From Candidatus Azotimanducaceae bacterium (GTDB lineage: Bacteria; Pseudomonadota; Gammaproteobacteria; Pseudomonadales; Azotimanducaceae): a stretch of DNA of 64,000 nucleotides. The stretch is taken from assembly GCA_965243175.1 (NCBI GenBank), contig OZ251532.1:2041464-2105463 (forward strand), read 5' to 3'. Below are positions 6,997 to 13,043 of the stretch, piece by piece. Positions within the stretch are counted from its first letter, which is position 1, and each line of letters opens with the position of its first letter. The translations under genes were made by a program, and so were the position numbers. The notes beneath the pieces are model-generated. The model saw only the letters and a program-made list of their open reading frames with translations. It had not been told where the DNA came from and did not search any database.

Positions 6997-7082
6997 CAAC
7001 TGCCTTGCACGCTATCGCGATCCAAAGCCGACGGGGCCGTCCGCCTGCGGAACGCAAACCCCGTTGACGCGCCCGGCGCCGA

Positions 7083-7288
7083 AGGAAACCTGGGCGCTGA
7101 CGATGCGCTGGCACGATCCGGCGACGGCCACGGACATCCCGGACTACGACCAGTCGCGGGCCGAAGCGCAGGCGGAGCGCACCCGGGCGGACGCGGTGGA
7201 GCACGAAGCGCGAGCCCGCACGGGAGCGGACCAGCGCAGGATCGCCGAACTGGAAGGACAGCTTCGGCGGCTGCGCGAGGGGCGTTGA
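7083..7288 (+). pseudogene. C-terminal fragment of a second Uma2-family gene (N-terminal part missing)
   Basis: TWALTMRWHDPATATDIP...AEAQAERTRADAVEHEARAR...IAELEGQLRRL parallels the LRFHDPETG plus coiled-coil tail of 2781-3617. The PD-(D/E)XK core is absent and the IS lies immediately upstream. Confidence 0.5.
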
Positions 7289-7322
7289 GTCCTCTGCGTG
7301 GCCGTTCAGCACGGCTGGCTCT

Positions 7323-7366
7323 TGCGCTTGACAAGCGCGTTGGGAGAGAGCACTCTTTGCGCCGTT
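7323..7366 (+). promoter_or_regulatory. Conserved about 44-nt box (copy 1) with TTGACA at 7328-7333, upstream of precursor A1
   Basis: tgcgcttgacaagcgcgttgggagagagcactctttgcgccgtt aligns with 10667-10710. The flanks are not conserved. Confidence 0.4.
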
Positions 7367-7481
7367 CAACTCGGCGAGCCGAGTGGCGAGTGCGCCGTGA
7401 GGGATGCGGCGCGGTGGCTGTTTTGGCAGCTAGGCCAGCAGCTGGGAGCAGCTTTCCTTAAATCAACGCGAGGAGTACGCT

Positions 7482-7684
7482 ATGAATTCCCCCCCCCCCC
7501 CCCCCCTCAGAAAGCCGAGGACGACAGCGGCGACGTAGCGCCGCACGAAGCCGCTGCGGCAGAAACCAAGAAGAAGCCGTGGTCGAGGCCGACCTTCCGC
7601 GCCATCGACGAAGTGACGATGTCGGCGAGTGCGCCGGCTCCCGACCTCGCTGAGAACACCGCTTACTATCCACTGTCGAACTGA
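7482..7684 (+). CDS. Putative RiPP (lasso-like) precursor peptide A1; the ATG frame and the conserved peptide frame differ by -1 inside a C18 tract
   Basis: SD GAGGAG 6 nt before ATG 7482, then the C18 tract. The conserved frame reads ...PPPPPPQKAEDDSGDVAPHEAAAAETKKKPWSRPTFRAIDEVTMSASAPAPDLAENTAYYPLSN* and is paralogous to 10810-11027. Confidence 0.6.
7489..7506 (+). repeat. Homopolymeric C18 tract
   Basis: Counted directly. Confidence 1.
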
Positions 7685-7750
7685 GTGGTGCGGCTAGCGG
7701 CTTCGGCAGCGGCTGGACTCCAGCAGCAACGCGGCCAGAGGCGGTCTGAG

Positions 7751-8782
7751 ATGCCGGCTTTCTATCGCGCCTATGGGTTGCGCGTGCGCTCCGAGGTGCC
7801 GCTGCCGTTCGATTCATTGCCGGCGCCTGTCCAAGATGCGGACGTCACGGTGCGCCTTGGCGACATTCCCGCCGAGCTTCCCGGCAGCGACGTCGTCCGC
7901 AAGGTGCGGTGGCAGGCCCGGCCTGGCGTCTTCCTCATCAAAGTCGAGGGCGTCGCTCGCTACTTGGTGGAGGGCGGTCGGGACATTACCGTGGCACCGC
8001 TTGGCGGCGACGATGCCGACATCGCCGCCTTCTTCGCCAACGCGCCCTTCGCAGTCCTCCTTCAACAGCGCGGCGTGCTCACGCTGCACTCCAGCAGCGT
8101 GGCGACCGGGGCTGGCGCGGCGTTGCTGCTCGGCGAGAGCGGAGTCGGCAAGTCCTCGCTGGCAGCGGCGCTCGTCGAGCGCGGCTTTCCGCTGATCGCG
8201 GACGACGTGACCGGGCTGGTCGCGGACGCAGACGGTCGCGTGACGGCGCTGCCCGGGTTCGCGAGCCTGCGGCTGTGGGCGGATACCTTGGACGAGATGC
8301 GCTGGCGAGGTCGCGGCGAGTCGAAGATGCGGCAGAGCATGGACAAGTACTGGATGCCCGTCGAACGCGCCCGCGCCACGCCGCTGCCGGTGCATGCCGC
8401 CTTCGTGCTGAAGGCCAACGGATCGAACGTCGACATCGATCCGATGCCGGAGCGGGACGCTTTCTCGCTGCTGTGGAGAAACACCCATCGGGCGCGGGCG
8501 ATGGGCGCGATCGGCAAGACGCAAACACGGTTCCGCACGGTCGCCGCGATGGCGCAGCGCGTCCCGGTAGCGGTAGCGACGCGGCCACGCCATCCGTTTC
8601 TGCTCGATGCGCTGGCGGACCGGGTTGCGGCGCTGCTTCCCGCGGCTTCGTTCTCCCGGGCCAGCGTGGCGGGACCGTGGCGCGACGTCCTGACGAAAGC
8701 CCAGGAGCGAGCGTTGACCAGCGCTCACGGCGAGGTGATGGCGCGGTTCGGCTATCTGCCGGACGCCGAATCGCCGGCGTAG
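7751..8782 (+). CDS. HPr-kinase-like P-loop kinase (HprK C-terminal-domain family)
   Basis: LTLHSSSVATGAGAALLLGESGVGKSSLAAALVERGFPLIADD is the HprK-type Walker A region. ORF 7685-8782 with ATG at 7751 preferred. Confidence 0.8.
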   Translation: MPAFYRAYGLRVRSEVPLPFDSLPAPVQDADVTVRLGDIPAELPGSDVVRKVRWQARPGVFLIKVEGVARYLVEGGRDITVAPLGGDDADIAAFFANAPFAVLLQQRGVLTLHSSSVATGAGAALLLGESGVGKSSLAAALVERGFPLIADDVTGLVADADGRVTALPGFASLRLWADTLDEMRWRGRGESKMRQSMDKYWMPVERARATPLPVHAAFVLKANGSNVDIDPMPERDAFSLLWRNTHRARAMGAIGKTQTRFRTVAAMAQRVPVAVATRPRHPFLLDALADRVAALLPAASFSRASVAGPWRDVLTKAQERALTSAHGEVMARFGYLPDAESPA

Positions 8783-8816
8783 GCATTTTCGACGCTTCGT
8801 GTACGCCGCAGCGTCG

Positions 8817-10661
8817 ATGGCCGCGATCTGTGGAATCCGCACTGCGGGCCGGGGCGGCAAGGCGGCGCTCGAGGCCATGCTGGGAACGCTTGCGGGAGCT
8901 GGCCCCGCGCACTCGGCTTGGCCGCAAGCGGCCATCGGCCTTGGCTGCCGCGAGACGGCGCTAGGCGAACCCGCGCTGGTCGCGGACGATGCCGCCGGCT
9001 TGACGCTGGTGGCCGACGCCCGCCTCGACGACCGCGATGGCCTTTGCGACGCGCTGGGCGTTCCAGTTGCCGAGCGCCGAGGCGTTGCCGATGCGCAACT
9101 GATTCTCCGCGCCTGGTCGCGCTGGGGCCGGGAGTGCCCGAACCACCTGCTCGGCGACTACGCCTTCGCGCTGTGGGACGCGCGGCGCCATTTCATGTTC
9201 TGCGCTCGGGACCACGCCGGCGCCCGGCCTTTCTACTACGCCCTGCCCAAGGACGGCATCGTCTTCGCGAGCGCCGTCGAACCGGTCCTCCGTGCGCCGG
9301 ACGTCGGGGACGCCTTGGACGAAGCCGTGGTGGCGACGCATCTTGCCAGCCGGCATTGCAGCGACACGCGCACGTTCTTCGCTGCAGTGCGCAAGCTGCC
9401 GCCGGGCCATGCGCTCTGCGTCGAATGGGCGCCGTCCGCGAACGGCACCGTGCAGCGAAAAAAGAGCCTCGCGCGTTACTGGCGGCCCGAACTGGCACCC
9501 GTGGCGAGACCAGCCGCCGACGACGAGTACGCCGAGCAGTTCCGCCACCTGCTCGCCCAAGCGGTGCGCGACCGGCTGCGCGGGTGCGATCCCGGCGCCA
9601 TCGGAACCCATCTGAGCGGCGGCCTGGATTCCTCCAGCATCGCGGTCGTCGCGGCCCGCGAGTTGCGCAGCCAAGGCCGTTCGCCGCCGCTCGCCTTCAG
9701 TTGGCTGCCGCAGCTGGGGGATGCGCCGCCCAAGGCCGAGTACGAGCGGGAGTACGCGCTGGTCGACGCGGTGTGCGCCCAGGAAGGCATCGAGGTCGTC
9801 CACGGCACGCCTTCGGCTGCGGACACCCTCGGCGTACTCGGCACCGACGGGGCGCTGCCCGGCATCCACCTTCACATCAACGAGGAGATCGCGCAACGCC
9901 ATGCCGCGGCCAGAGGCGTGCGTGTGCTGCTCTCCGGCTGGGGCGGCGACGAGTGCGTCTCGTTCAATGGCCGCGGGCATTGGCAGGAACTGCTCTTGCG
10001 TGGCCGCTGGCGGAAGCTCGCCGCCGAGTGTCGGGCGCAGGACGCCACGGCGCTGCGTTTCCTGGCGCACGTCGTGCTGCCGCTCCTGCATCCCGCGCTC
10101 GTGCCAGCGCTCGCCGGAAGCCGTAGCTGGCCGACCGCGAAGCGCTGGCTTATCGACCCCGCGTTCTCTCGCCGCGTGAAGCCGTTGGCTGCACCGGGAT
10201 GGCGAGAGATCGGAGTGCGCAGCACGCAGCTTCGGCTGCTGCAGGCCGGGCATCTGGTCGACCGCATCGAAGGCTGGGCGGCCAGCGGCGCCCGTCGAGG
10301 TATCGAATACCGCTATCCGCTGCTGGATCGCCGACTGCTGGAGTTCGCCCTGGGGCTGCCGCCCGAACAGTTCCGGCGCGGGCGCTGGAGCCGCTGGCTG
10401 TTCCGCCACGGCTGCCGCACGCTGCTGCCGCCGGAGGTCCGCTGGAATCGGCTGAAGGCCGACCCGGCGCGCAGCGAGACCACGCAGGACGCCTTCGTCG
10501 AGGCGTTCCCCGCGATCCGGCAGCGCCTCGCCGCCCGCACTCCGTCCCGCGCCCGCTACGTGGACGTGCAGCGCCTGCTCGAACGCCTGGACGCGGCGCG
10601 GTTCCACACCAAGCCGCAACCGGGGCCGATGATCAGGGCGCTGCAACTCCTCGATTTCTGA
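8817..10661 (+). CDS. Asparagine-synthetase-like protein (lasso-cyclase-like; Cys not at position 2)
   Basis: MAAICGI, LLGDYAFALWD, RDHAGARPFYY, PP-loop THLSGGLDSSSIA, LLSGWGGDE. An alternative GTG start is at 8799. Confidence 0.85.
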   Translation: MAAICGIRTAGRGGKAALEAMLGTLAGAGPAHSAWPQAAIGLGCRETALGEPALVADDAAGLTLVADARLDDRDGLCDALGVPVAERRGVADAQLILRAWSRWGRECPNHLLGDYAFALWDARRHFMFCARDHAGARPFYYALPKDGIVFASAVEPVLRAPDVGDALDEAVVATHLASRHCSDTRTFFAAVRKLPPGHALCVEWAPSANGTVQRKKSLARYWRPELAPVARPAADDEYAEQFRHLLAQAVRDRLRGCDPGAIGTHLSGGLDSSSIAVVAARELRSQGRSPPLAFSWLPQLGDAPPKAEYEREYALVDAVCAQEGIEVVHGTPSAADTLGVLGTDGALPGIHLHINEEIAQRHAAARGVRVLLSGWGGDECVSFNGRGHWQELLLRGRWRKLAAECRAQDATALRFLAHVVLPLLHPALVPALAGSRSWPTAKRWLIDPAFSRRVKPLAAPGWREIGVRSTQLRLLQAGHLVDRIEGWAASGARRGIEYRYPLLDRRLLEFALGLPPEQFRRGRWSRWLFRHGCRTLLPPEVRWNRLKADPARSETTQDAFVEAFPAIRQRLAARTPSRARYVDVQRLLERLDAARFHTKPQPGPMIRALQLLDF

Positions 10662-10666
10662 CGCAC

Positions 10667-10710
10667 TGCGCTTGACAAGCCGCACTGGGAAAGAGCACTC
10701 TCGCGCCGTT
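10667..10710 (+). promoter_or_regulatory. Conserved box (copy 2) with TTGACA at 10672-10677, starting 6 nt after the cyclase stop
   Basis: tgcgcttgacaagccgcactgggaaagagcactctcgcgccgtt aligns with 7323-7366. Confidence 0.4.
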
Positions 10711-10809
10711 GGACGCAACTTGAACGGGACCGTCGGGTAGCCGCAAGGCCCCGAGAGCAAGATCGGTCGAGAGGCCGATCTGCACACCCAAGCCAGCAGA
10801 GGCCACTCT

Positions 10810-11027
10810 ATGAATTTCCCCAATTTCCCCCCCTCCCCCCCCCCCCCCCCCCCCCCCCTGAGGACGACAACGACGGCGTAGCGCCGCGCGAGCCGTTAGC
10901 GGCAGAAACGAAGAAGCCGTGGTCGAAACCCACCTTCCGCCGTCTCGACGATAGGACCATGTCGCGAGTCGCAAGCGGGCCGCAACCGGAAACGAACGAG
11001 ATCGGCGTTTACAACCCAAACTCGTAA
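10810..11027 (+). CDS. Putative RiPP precursor peptide A2; again -1 out of frame across a C24 tract
   Basis: SD AGAGG 7 nt before ATG 10810, then C4, C7 and C24 runs. The conserved frame reads ...EDDNDGVAPREPLAAETKKPWSKPTFRRLDDRTMSRVASGPQPETNEIGVYNPNS*. That frame has no ATG, GTG or TTG between 10662 and 10958. Confidence 0.55.
10835..10858 (+). repeat. Homopolymeric C24 tract, preceded by C7 at 10827-10833
   Basis: Counted directly. Confidence 1.
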
Positions 11028-11069
11028 GTCGCGAAGCATTCATTGACGGACACAGCTCGAAGCGTCCCC

Positions 11070-11135
11070 ATGCAGGCTGCCTACTGCGCCTGCGGGTTGC
11101 GGGTGCGCTCCGACGTGCTGCTGAACTGGCCGTAA
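11070..11135 (+). pseudogene. 21-codon relic of a second HprK-like kinase gene
   Basis: MQAAYCACGLRVRSDVLLNWP* compared with the kinase N-terminus MPAFYRAYGLRVRSEVPLPFD (12 of 21 identical). It holds the same position relative to A2 as the intact kinase does to A1. Confidence 0.6.
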
Positions 11136-11147
11136 GGCGGGCGTCGG

Positions 11148-13043
11148 TTAGGACTTGCGGGCAAACCGGAGCGCGCGCACCGCCAGCGCGAGGAGGGCCA
11201 GCGCAATTGCGTACCACATCAGGAAGCCCAGGGAGAGGGTGAGGGCGGATTCCATCTCCAAGGCCAGTACCGCGAGCATGTGCGTGCCAGCCGCCAACGT
11301 CGCAGGGCAGGCGTCTGGATGGTGCAGGAGTTCGTGCAGGGCGCGATAGAGCAGGCCGAGCGCGACCATGCCGAGGAGCACGCCGGCGAGGCCGAAGTTG
11401 ACGTAGAACTCGCCGAGCTGATGCACCTTGAAGGCGCGCATCGTGTCCGGCGCCGTGAAGCCGTACCGAATCCCCAAGTCGCGCACGTCGCCCGGTTTCT
11501 CGGCGAAGACGGCGCGGGGGACGAGCTTGTAGAGGATCGGCAGATAGGTCTCGCCGTGCAGGAAGGGCAGCGGGTCGGGGGAGCGCACGGTGAGCCAGGC
11601 GAGGGGCAGCAGGTAGTCGAGGCGCTTGGCGGTCAAGTCCTCGGTGCGCATCGCGCCGCCTTCGCCGTCGAACGCCGCCGCCATCGTCTTCGCGTACAGT
11701 CCCGCCTTCTCCGCTAGGGAATCGTGCGCCTGCGGCGCTCCCGGGTTGCTGGGAATAGCGGCACGGAAGGGCGCGTCCGCGTGTTCGGCTGCGGCGACTT
11801 CGTGCGGGACGACTTGCTTCAGCCGCGACAACTCGATGCGAACGGCCACTATCGGATAGTCCGGCAGACGGAGGCTGGCGACGCAGCGGCCGTCTTCGAC
11901 GAGGCCGTCGCCGAAGGAGGTTCCCAAGGACTGGAAACTGCGGCGCCATCTGAGTTCGGGCAGGTCGCGTACGTCCACCGGATCGACGAACGCGCCGATT
12001 CGGAACGCCGGTTGGGCGCAGACTTCCGGGTCGTTGTGGGCGACGGTGAGGGTTCGGCCGCGAAGCGTTGCTTCGTAGGCAGGCGTGGTCAACGTCTGTT
12101 TCTCGCCGTCCGCCAGCACGAACTGGTGGGCGGCGACCGGCGAGGTCGCGTTCGGGCCCACGCCATGCGTCCAGATCAGCTGCCGGTACTCCAAGCGCGT
12201 GGGAATCAGCACGAAGAGGAGCGCCGCGGCGGTCACTGCGCCGAAGGCGATGCCGCGCCAAGTCGGCCTCGGTGCGACCACCGCGTAGGCCACGAACAGA
12301 GCGAACACCGCCTTCGCGCCGTGGTTCACCATCCCGGTGCTGAACCCCAGAACCGTGTAGTACGCGACCAACGCCGCCAGATAGAGCCGCCCGGCAACGC
12401 CAAGCTGGCCGCGCAAGTGCAGGTGGAAGCACACCAGCGCCGCGAACAGCACGAACTGCCCGGCGAGCGTCACCGGGAACGCGACCGCATCGGGCAGCAG
12501 CGTCTCCCCGGCGTACCGGGCGGCAACCGCCGCCTTGTCCAGATAGAAGAACGGCGCTGCGGCGAGGCCCACCACCACCGCGACCGCCTTGGCGAGCTGC
12601 GGATCGTCGCTCGGCAATATGCGGACGGTCGGCAGCGCGGCCCACGGTTTCCCGCCGGCGAACGCGAAGTAGCCCGCCATCAGGGCGGCCCATCCGCCGA
12701 GAGCCAGCATGAGCGCGTAGTCGATGGCGTCCGCTTCGAGCAGCGGCCGCGGCAGCCAAGCGCCGAAGAAGTCGACGCGCACGAAGACCGGCGCCGCGAA
12801 GCAGGCGGCGTAGAGGACGCCGACGTAGGGCATCGCCGAGTGTCGCCAACGCCGCCGTGCAGCCCACATGAGCGAAGGCGCCGCGCACAGGGCGATGAGC
12901 AAGCTCGCGAGCAGGCGCTGCAAGCCGGTCGGCTCGGCTGGCGCGTGGAGATTGAGGGCGACGATGGCCAACGCCACCAGAACCGCGACCGCCGCGAACA
13001 TCCGCCGCCCGTCGTCGAGTGCGCTTGCTGGTTTCTCTTCCAT
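11148..13043 (-). CDS. Polytopic membrane protein of unknown function (Wzy/O-antigen-ligase-like topology with a large soluble insert)
   Basis: 631-aa ORF with many hydrophobic helices at both ends and an insert of about 200 aa. The family assignment is a guess. Confidence 0.65.
   Translation of the reverse strand: MEEKPASALDDGRRMFAAVAVLVALAIVALNLHAPAEPTGLQRLLASLLIALCAAPSLMWAARRRWRHSAMPYVGVLYAACFAAPVFVRVDFFGAWLPRPLLEADAIDYALMLALGGWAALMAGYFAFAGGKPWAALPTVRILPSDDPQLAKAVAVVVGLAAAPFFYLDKAAVAARYAGETLLPDAVAFPVTLAGQFVLFAALVCFHLHLRGQLGVAGRLYLAALVAYYTVLGFSTGMVNHGAKAVFALFVAYAVVAPRPTWRGIAFGAVTAAALLFVLIPTRLEYRQLIWTHGVGPNATSPVAAHQFVLADGEKQTLTTPAYEATLRGRTLTVAHNDPEVCAQPAFRIGAFVDPVDVRDLPELRWRRSFQSLGTSFGDGLVEDGRCVASLRLPDYPIVAVRIELSRLKQVVPHEVAAAEHADAPFRAAIPSNPGAPQAHDSLAEKAGLYAKTMAAAFDGEGGAMRTEDLTAKRLDYLLPLAWLTVRSPDPLPFLHGETYLPILYKLVPRAVFAEKPGDVRDLGIRYGFTAPDTMRAFKVHQLGEFYVNFGLAGVLLGMVALGLLYRALHELLHHPDACPATLAAGTHMLAVLALEMESALTLSLGFLMWYAIALALLALAVRALRFARKS

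Follow-up and report, generated by a model that had tools for sequence, protein, structure and literature searches.

The window analysed here, a stretch of 64,000 nucleotides from the genome of a Candidatus Azotimanducaceae bacterium (assembly GCA_965243175.1, contig OZ251532.1, positions 2,041,464 to 2,105,463), contains two small genes, A1 and A2, which are probably genuine paralogous precursors of an unnamed kinase-associated, lasso-type family of ribosomally made, post-translationally modified peptides (RiPPs) in uncultured Gammaproteobacteria, namely Candidatus Azotimanducaceae and relatives. This estimate covers jointly the proposed pathway and the proposed register of leader cleavage. 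The host genome, a single contig of 4.94 Mb with 67% G+C, has at least 17 such precursor genes. The family signature comprises KKPW-x-K-P-T-(I/F), 10-14 residues, (S/T)-Gly, 8-9 residues to an invariant Glu, x3-Tyr, and a C-terminal Ser. The features that appear to be new are a leader block containing Trp, the Ser/Thr(-1)-Gly1 junction and the invariant Glu-x3-Tyr...Ser module on the side of the peptide, and, on the side of genome organization, a single unlinked pair of leader-binding protein B1 and protease B2, the multi-copy dispersal of the precursors and the homopolymer after their start codon.

Both A1 and A2 as assembled are off frame by one C, and their elements are the following.

7470-7475, plus strand: ribosome-binding site of A1 (GAGGAG), read from the sequence
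7482-7684, plus strand: A1 gene
7482-7488, plus strand: start of A1 (ATG AAT T), read from the sequence
7489-7506, plus strand: homopolymer of A1 (C18) between the ATG and the peptide, a Pro run if translated, which sets the frame
7508-7684, plus strand: peptide frame of A1, 58 codons and TGA (7682-7684), with an acidic N-terminal leader part, the recognition motif and the core
7568-7597, plus strand: leader recognition motif of A1 (KKKPWSRPTF), conserved over 59 sequences and with synonymous codon variation
7631-7681, plus strand: proposed core of A1, APAPDLAENTAYYPLSN, based on alignment columns and register comparison
10810-11027, plus strand: A2 gene, with the ATG at 10810, C24 at 10835-10858 and the peptide frame at 10860-11027
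from 10977, plus strand: proposed core of A2, GPQPETNEIGVYNPNS, with the invariant Glu at 10998-11000 and the terminal Ser at 11022-11024

The ATG of A1 would be joined to the peptide by one additional C or by the loss of two, and the peptide read from the open frame at 7508-7684 is QKAEDDSGDVAPHEAAAAETKKKPWSRPTFRAIDEVTMSASAPAPDLAENTAYYPLSN, followed by the stop. This frame is under amino-acid constraint, and it is intact and linked to an ATG in orthologues. The A1 orthologue P0016, found in the public metagenome contig L113, is in frame and ATG-linked; it begins with MNSPPPPQKAEDD..., reads MNSPPPPQKAEDDSDDVASREAVAAETKKKPWSKPTFRAIDEVTMSASSPKPDLHEDNVYYPLSN in full, and is 81% identical to the A1 peptide. 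The two genes differ at 24 of 174 nucleotides with no indels, and the ratio of nonsynonymous to synonymous substitution rates (dN/dS) is 0.33, compared with 0.79 and 1.48 in the other frames (p ~0.01-0.03). In strain L114 (98.3% identical) the A2 copy P0003 is in frame behind a C16 tract. P0010 and P0015 are likewise in-frame, ATG-linked versions, and the starts of these four genes read MNS... in P0016 and P0010 and MNF... in P0003 and P0015. All indels that separate A1, A2 and their paralogue at position 4625558 of the host genome are multiples of three; dN/dS among paralogues is 0.35-0.57 (0.8-1.7 in other frames), and the G+C content of third codon positions (GC3) is 0.77 and 0.76 in the peptide frame and 0.52-0.61 in the others. 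The leader motif occurs in 50 distinct DNA versions; all of them keep the Trp, and the invariant Pro is encoded by CCG in 34, CCC in 12, CCA in 3 and CCT in 1.

The first-pass annotation of this DNA had claimed, from a codon-by-codon alignment of A1 with A2, that the shifted frame truly codes, and the claim is borne out by the orthologue dN/dS, the in-frame indels, the in-frame relatives and the Pro codon variation. The comparison of homologues by dN/dS and conservation, which it had proposed as a check, found the frame conserved across the 59 relatives described below and constrained against the orthologue. Its list of codon changes was reproduced, both the synonymous ones (gaa/gag, acc/acg, ccg/ccc, acg/acc) and the conservative ones, R/K (agg/aaa), I/L (atc/ctc) and E/D (gaa/gat). 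The claimed in-frame indel of 3 nucleotides (aag) is present, but a second in-frame indel, the 6 nucleotides CGAGTC that encode Arg-Val in A2, had been overlooked; it stands immediately 3' of ATG TCG, within the core, so that the residues numbered there as Asp8 of A1 and Glu10 of A2 are homologous. The shared skeleton given as EDD..GVAP describes A2 only, A1 having EDDSGDVAP. By itself the A1/A2 pair is weak evidence of coding, with a dN/dS of 0.56 (0.90 and 1.72 in the other frames) and a synonymous excess at a binomial p of 0.14.

The family was defined on 59 non-redundant relatives from at least 12 genomes, obtained by six-frame profile searches and locus fetches in the host genome, genomes of the same family and public chromosomes of metagenome-assembled genomes; nine long 'TDVIESHG' paralogues of the host genome, which are unfit for a ring from Gly1 to Glu7-9, were excluded from this analysis. 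In the leader motif, Trp and the Pro at W+3 occur in 59/59 sequences, Lys/Arg in 58/59 at W-3, 59/59 at W-2 and 56/59 at W+2, Thr at W+4 in 42/59, and Ile/Val/Phe/Leu at W+5 in 57/59. The earlier reading of PWSRPTF as a leader motif of the type bound by a RiPP recognition element (RRE) is thus upheld, and KKKPWSRPTF is, as far as its residues tell, a variant of the lasso motif YxxPxL, which spans positions -17 to -12 of lasso leaders (PMC10368454). Downstream, a conserved column holds Gly in 51 and Ala in 4 of the 59 sequences (A1 has Ala), immediately preceded by Ser/Thr in 46/59. The invariant acidic column is Glu in 58 and Asp in 1, and Tyr follows four residues past it in 57/59. The span from Gly to Glu is 8 residues in 26/59 and 9 in 15/59, and the commonest tail past the Glu has exactly 8 residues (31/59). 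In the A1 core, Ala1 occupies the Gly column, the invariant Glu (7652-7654) is at position 8, and Tyr-Tyr and a penultimate Ser follow. A2 ends in Ser and A1 in Ser-Asn; the Ser at or near the C-terminus, pointed out in the first-pass annotation for these two genes, proved to be a family feature, being terminal in 46/59 and among the last three residues in 57/59. Scans of six precursors with Pfam and NCBIfam matched no family, and the 82 proteins retrieved by a profile search of a protein database all lack a name and a Pfam domain.

A longer precursor subfamily has nine copies in the host genome (2949990, 3204709, 3420777, 4045616, 4047184, 4051743, 4140779, 4290405 and 4470495), of the form ...KKPWSRPTFYVLTDVIESHGAP...YRPATA. 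All of them have the AATT-poly-C start, and most are not beside a kinase or cyclase gene. They have no acidic residue 7-9 positions past the conserved Gly, and their C-terminus is not Ser.

The precursors A1 and A2 adjoin two enzyme genes, and the Pfam and NCBIfam matches of both agree with the proposal that a lasso-type precursor lies here beside an HPr-kinase-like gene and a cyclase gene of the Asn-synthetase type.

7751-8782, plus strand: HPr-kinase-like tailoring kinase, 343 amino acids; Pfam Hpr_kinase_C above cut-off, TIGR04352 and TIGR04355 partial
8799-10661, plus strand: Asn-synthetase-like macrolactam synthetase (lasso C protein), between A1 and A2

The best NCBIfam match of the cyclase is the lasso cyclase NF033535 (E 7e-102, 342 bits), and Pfam Asn_synthase matches as well. 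Six cyclase paralogues of 43-100% identity, the window copy included, are present in the host genome together with two distant Asn-synthetase-like proteins (31-35%), and there are nine kinase-like genes. Lasso kinases have a catalytic His-Lys-Asp-Asp motif (PMC9266682); in the kinase of the window, His113, Lys134, Asp151 and Asp152 are invariant in an alignment with its closest paralogues (four sequences). In paralogous clusters (genome positions 528754-530655, 2247041-2248951 and 1073749-1075635) the HPr-kinase-like domain is fused to a sulfotransferase (WPKSGSTW) in proteins of ~633 amino acids. Residues 298-340 of the window kinase match the C-terminus of these 633-residue fusions; it thus keeps the last ~45 residues of the sulfotransferase domain, which implies an apparent internal deletion. 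Among the precursor residues, the invariant Tyr is a candidate for sulfation.

The locus itself has no gene for B1, B2 or an exporter, and B2 is absent from the window as a whole. Elsewhere in the host genome there is exactly one lasso B2, a stand-alone gene with low GC3 (2907140-2907604; NF033537, 60 bits with a cut-off of 33), and a stand-alone PqqD-type B1-like gene (4343325-4343636), the best match of which is the lasso chaperone NF033536 (70 bits with a cut-off of 80) and the product of which matches the solved RRE TbiB1 (5v1u) with E 4e-11. Co-occurrence was analysed in one fixed set of 301 genomes of the family, 10 with strong precursor matches and 291 others. B2 occurs in 10/10 of the former and 17/291 of the latter (Fisher 6e-12), and a close B1 orthologue in 10/10 and 1/291 (Fisher 8e-18), values that overstate independence, since the genomes span three genera. 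In the genome G010 the B1 orthologue lies directly upstream of a precursor and a kinase gene. These observations support a lasso-type pathway in which B1 and B2 would act in trans on many scattered modules.

We propose the following pathway. Translation would require a poly-C tract of the right length. The PqqD-type RRE of B1, encoded elsewhere, would bind the leader motif K-K-P-W-x-K/R-P-T-(F/I), and the HPr-kinase-like enzyme would phosphorylate the still linear precursor on its C-terminal Ser, which in A1 is the penultimate residue. HPr-kinase homologues of lasso clusters are known to phosphorylate the C-terminal Ser of linear precursors (PMC8498205, PMC9266682), and such a reaction fits A2 and most of the family. 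The B2 protease, likewise encoded elsewhere, would then cut after the conserved Ser/Thr and before the conserved Gly (Ala in A1), and the adjacent Asn-synthetase-like enzyme would join the new N-terminus to the invariant Glu, giving 8-residue rings, APAPDLAE in A1 and GPQPETNE in A2. The remaining tail would have 8-9 residues, with the invariant Tyr as a likely plug.

The cleavage site, the ring and the modifications are predictions. For the site and the ring, four registers were scored on the 59 sequences by two properties: whether residue 1 is Gly, Ala, Ser or Cys, and whether positions 7-9 include the invariant Glu.

Conserved Gly column as residue 1: residue 1 fits in 57/59, Glu at 7-9 in 41/59
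Canonical -12 rule (PMC10368454): residue 1 fits in 35/59, Glu at 7-9 in 32/59
Ser/Thr before the Gly as residue 1: residue 1 fits in 44/59, Glu at 7-9 in 26/59
Register of the first-pass annotation, 9 residues past the hydrophobic residue: residue 1 fits in 22/59, Glu at 7-9 in 5/59

Since this comparison favours the Gly column, A1 = APAPDLAENTAYYPLSN (Ala1-Glu8) and A2 = GPQPETNEIGVYNPNS (Gly1-Glu8) are the best supported cores. A strict -12 spacing of the cleavage site fits worse than the Gly column and was rejected; across the family the distance of the hydrophobic motif residue from the conserved Gly ranges from -10 to -14, with -12 in A1 and -14 in A2. The alternative that survives best, though it is an unlikely one, starts the core one residue earlier, at the conserved Ser/Thr, with 9-residue rings onto the same invariant Glu (SAPAPDLAE... 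in A1, SGPQPETNE... in A2). Ser is acceptable as residue 1, and position -2 would be Val in 23/59 and Thr in 21/59, in keeping with the Ile/Val(-2) leaders documented for kinase-associated lasso peptides (PMC10368454). Against this start, the core would begin with Thr in 10 relatives and with Leu in 3, position -2 of A1 would be Ser, and the Glu would fall at 7-9 in 26/59 sequences versus 41/59 for the Gly start.

Several observations weigh against the assignment of A1 and A2 as lasso-type precursors cut before the Gly column. Both genes are out of frame as assembled, A1 also in the sister strain L114. The spacing from motif to core varies from -10 to -14, and in 18/59 relatives, including the closest paralogue (4625558), the span from Gly to Glu is 10-11 residues, known rings having 7-9; in that paralogue it reads GPIPFPAQPE. 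Position -2 in the Gly-column register is Arg, Gly, Ala or Glu and not Thr/Ile/Val; leaders that lack Thr(-2) have precedents among kinase-associated lasso peptides, where Ile/Val(-2) occurs (PMC10368454). On NF033535 the cyclase reaches 342 bits and so falls short of the curated cut-off (525), the genes for B1 and B2 lie apart from the A1/A2 locus, and their co-occurrence with the precursors carries the dependence among genera mentioned above.

The missing B1, B2 and exporter at the locus, the sub-threshold cyclase, the 31% of relatives that misfit a 7-9 ring and the lack of matches to a curated precursor family would all suit a pathway of another kind, in which the Asn-synthetase-like enzyme would catalyse a different ATP-dependent amidation and yield phospho- or sulfo-peptides that are linear or cyclised in another way. 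We consider this quite improbable, as no other model matches the enzyme nearly as well as that of the lasso cyclase (E 7e-102), all precursor-bearing genomes that were searched have lasso-type B1 and B2 and hardly any of the others do, and B1 adjoins a precursor in G010.

A comparably low probability is given to the explanation that A1 and A2 are decaying, frameshifted pseudogenes, whose poly-C length reflects a fixed lesion or a mistake of assembly and does not act as a switch. It would account for the frame of both genes as assembled and of A1 in the sister strain, for the sulfotransferase domain lost from the kinase and the relic of a second kinase gene, and it could draw on the unreliable homopolymer lengths of long-read metagenome assemblies. 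However, there are no stops or out-of-frame indels past the tract, dN/dS against orthologues is below 1, and tract lengths as assembled differ between strains that are 98.3% identical, A2 being in frame in one of them. The A1 tract is C18 in the window, C15 in L114 and C15 in the in-frame L113 orthologue, and the A2 tract is C24 in the window and C16 in L114, where the gene is in frame; exact lengths are uncertain, because the genomes are long-read metagenome assemblies. The host genome has 37 runs of C or G of at least 9 nucleotides, most of 16-35 nucleotides, and 16 of them stand just past precursor start codons. These 16 tract-bearing precursors divide into 6 in frame, 6 that need +1 and 4 that need -1; this split equals the random expectation and speaks against pseudogenes, as do the ~17-19 of ~46 homologues that are in frame in other genomes (hand tally).

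The same split (6 in frame, 6 with +1, 4 with -1), and a similar spread among the homologues elsewhere in that hand tally, rules out a programmed ribosomal frameshift or slippage of fixed direction. A functional role of the poly-Pro run as a peptide element is unlikely, as the tract of G021 is poly-G and encodes a Gly run, and some relatives are tract-free. The tract-free genes, which run plainly from ATG to stop, comprise several relatives and one paralogue of the host genome (1072340-1072477, minus strand), a gene with no homopolymer that encodes MPVEKGADEKKSTPSEQGKKPWSRPTLRRIEDGIVVVKSGPNQASWVLVETPSYTRIS and is divergent from the tract-bearing precursor at 1072915. The poly-G locus of G021 (L006; G021:C1:1684579-1688487, minus strand) has two tandem precursors with G20 and G21 tracts, one of which is in frame and the other not.

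Simple-sequence contingency loci, in which homopolymers cause phase variation, are familiar from Neisseria, Haemophilus and Campylobacter. The precursors share with them a long homopolymer in the 5' coding part that sets the frame, lengths that differ, as assembled, between close strains, and a random distribution of paralogues over the three frames. In contrast to these loci, the tracts described here are much longer (10-35 nucleotides), occur in a genome of 67% G+C, and are located in RiPP precursor genes instead of surface or restriction genes. Homopolymers are not confined to the precursors: genes for several families of signal-peptide proteins have them at the 5' end, as does a DNA methyltransferase-like gene with the motif DLIYLDPPF (C12 at 4275351); example positions are 86452, 92854, 3168624, 3324567, 3496331, 4029740, 4251249, 3570259, 4571988 and 4275351. 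The distribution suggests genome-wide contingency loci and possibly a phasevarion.

Least probable, by a small margin, is the register of the first-pass annotation, a cut after Thr-Met that gives a Ser1-Asp8 ring in A1 (SASAPAPD...) and SRVASGPQPE... with Glu10 in A2, or a cut one residue later: the Thr-x-Ser is common to A1, A2, the paralogue 4625558 and close orthologues, and Asp8 is kept in the A1 orthologue P0016, but the Thr taken there as Thr(-2) of 'TMS' occurs in just 6/59 relatives, the Asp8 column is acidic in just 14/59, an acceptable residue 1 is found in 22/59 and the invariant Glu lies within 7-9 in 5/59, the ring of A2 would have to span 10 residues, positions 1-14 of the paralogue 4625558 contain no acidic residue, the later cut makes Arg residue 1 of A2, and the motif lies 3 residues too near the cleavage site, a discrepancy that is gone for A1 in the Gly-column register, where the Phe is exactly at -12.

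The proposed system, with cores starting at the Gly column, resembles phosphorylated lasso systems (paeninodin PadeA/PadeK, ThcoA/ThcoK, and SyanA/SyanK of Sphingobium yanoikuyae, SyanA being compared by description) in the kinase-beside-cyclase layout and the Ser-ending precursor; those systems have the same split of B1 and B2, and some of their clusters contain sulfotransferase genes. It differs from them in the invariant Trp that replaces Tyr, within a K-K-P-W-x-K-P-T-(I/F) block, in having Ser/Thr at -1 before the conserved Gly and no Thr(-2), and in the invariant Glu-x3-Tyr module of the core. At the genome level the differences are the single-copy B1 and B2, unlinked to most precursor/kinase/cyclase modules, the up to ~20 precursor genes per genome with a G:C homopolymer after the start codon, and the kinase-sulfotransferase fusion in paralogues. 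The BsfA/BsfK/BsfB1/BsfB2 system of Bradymonas sediminis (PMC10368454) is likewise proteobacterial and kinase-associated, with a non-Thr penultimate leader residue; its core was placed with the help of the conserved motif together with a conserved Gly1, by the reasoning used here, and its B1 serves both kinase and protease. In contrast, the residue that BsfK phosphorylates is Ser3, within the ring, and the last residue of BsfA is Asp, whereas the C-terminal Ser is conserved here, and the YxxPxL of BsfA is fixed at -17 to -12 with Ile(-2), whereas the spacing here varies from -10 to -14 (PMC10368454).

A broader picture, which we offer tentatively and hold to be somewhat doubtful as a whole, is that of a dispersed repertoire of up to ~20 lasso-type precursors, each switched independently by its own G:C homopolymer and processed by one B1/B2 pair in trans together with several kinase(-sulfotransferase)/cyclase modules. 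In that case the output of a clonal population would be a shifting mix of phosphorylated, perhaps Tyr-sulfated peptides, some of them with 10-11-membered rings, which to our knowledge are larger than any known lasso ring. The present analysis defines a precursor family that is named by no curated library or source, and yields a testable signature with concrete core predictions for A1 and A2. If one unlinked B1/B2 pair can serve many scattered modules, cluster-based genome mining would miss such systems or call them incomplete; gene callers also skip most genes of the family, because the homopolymer splits them. The Ser/Thr(-1)-Gly1 junction and the Trp-for-Tyr motif would widen the recognition rules of lasso RREs and peptidases, and the family offers a natural test of phase-variable natural-product output.

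Two further elements accompany the precursors in the window.

7323-7366, plus strand: upstream box with TTGACA; a second copy is at 10667-10710
11070-11135, plus strand: leftover of a duplication, a 5'-terminal relic of a second kinase gene that aligns with the start of the kinase gene

The box aligns between the A1 and A2 regions and the flanking 5' leader does not; the conserved copy at 7323-7366 is likely a promoter or operator of A1. A comparison of 7000-11300 with Rfam gave no family matches. In L113 a helix-turn-helix transposase-like gene (9228-10502) is found in the place of A2, between the cyclase gene and a gene for a membrane protein of 631 amino acids.

Two observations concern related genes elsewhere. 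In four related genomes a B2 match lies inside open frames of 600-700 amino acids (G084:C1:3426194-3426616, G222:C1:826139-826564, G118:C1:1477897-1478322 and G248:C1:2223251-2223694), which suggests a B2 fusion protein; nucleotidyltransferase-B2 fusions are known (PMC8498205). The host genome also carries a separate HPr-rel-A-type cluster (1186000-1203000) with PqqD, two HprK-related kinases, an Asn-synthetase-like gene, sulfotransferases and 2-oxoglutarate (2OG)-oxygenase-like genes, interrupted by a transposase-like sequence. In the G010 version of this cluster (L013) a putative precursor (...RRPWTPPKLEKGSEVLDDVRTFKGPANEPAG...) is also preceded by a C24 tract.

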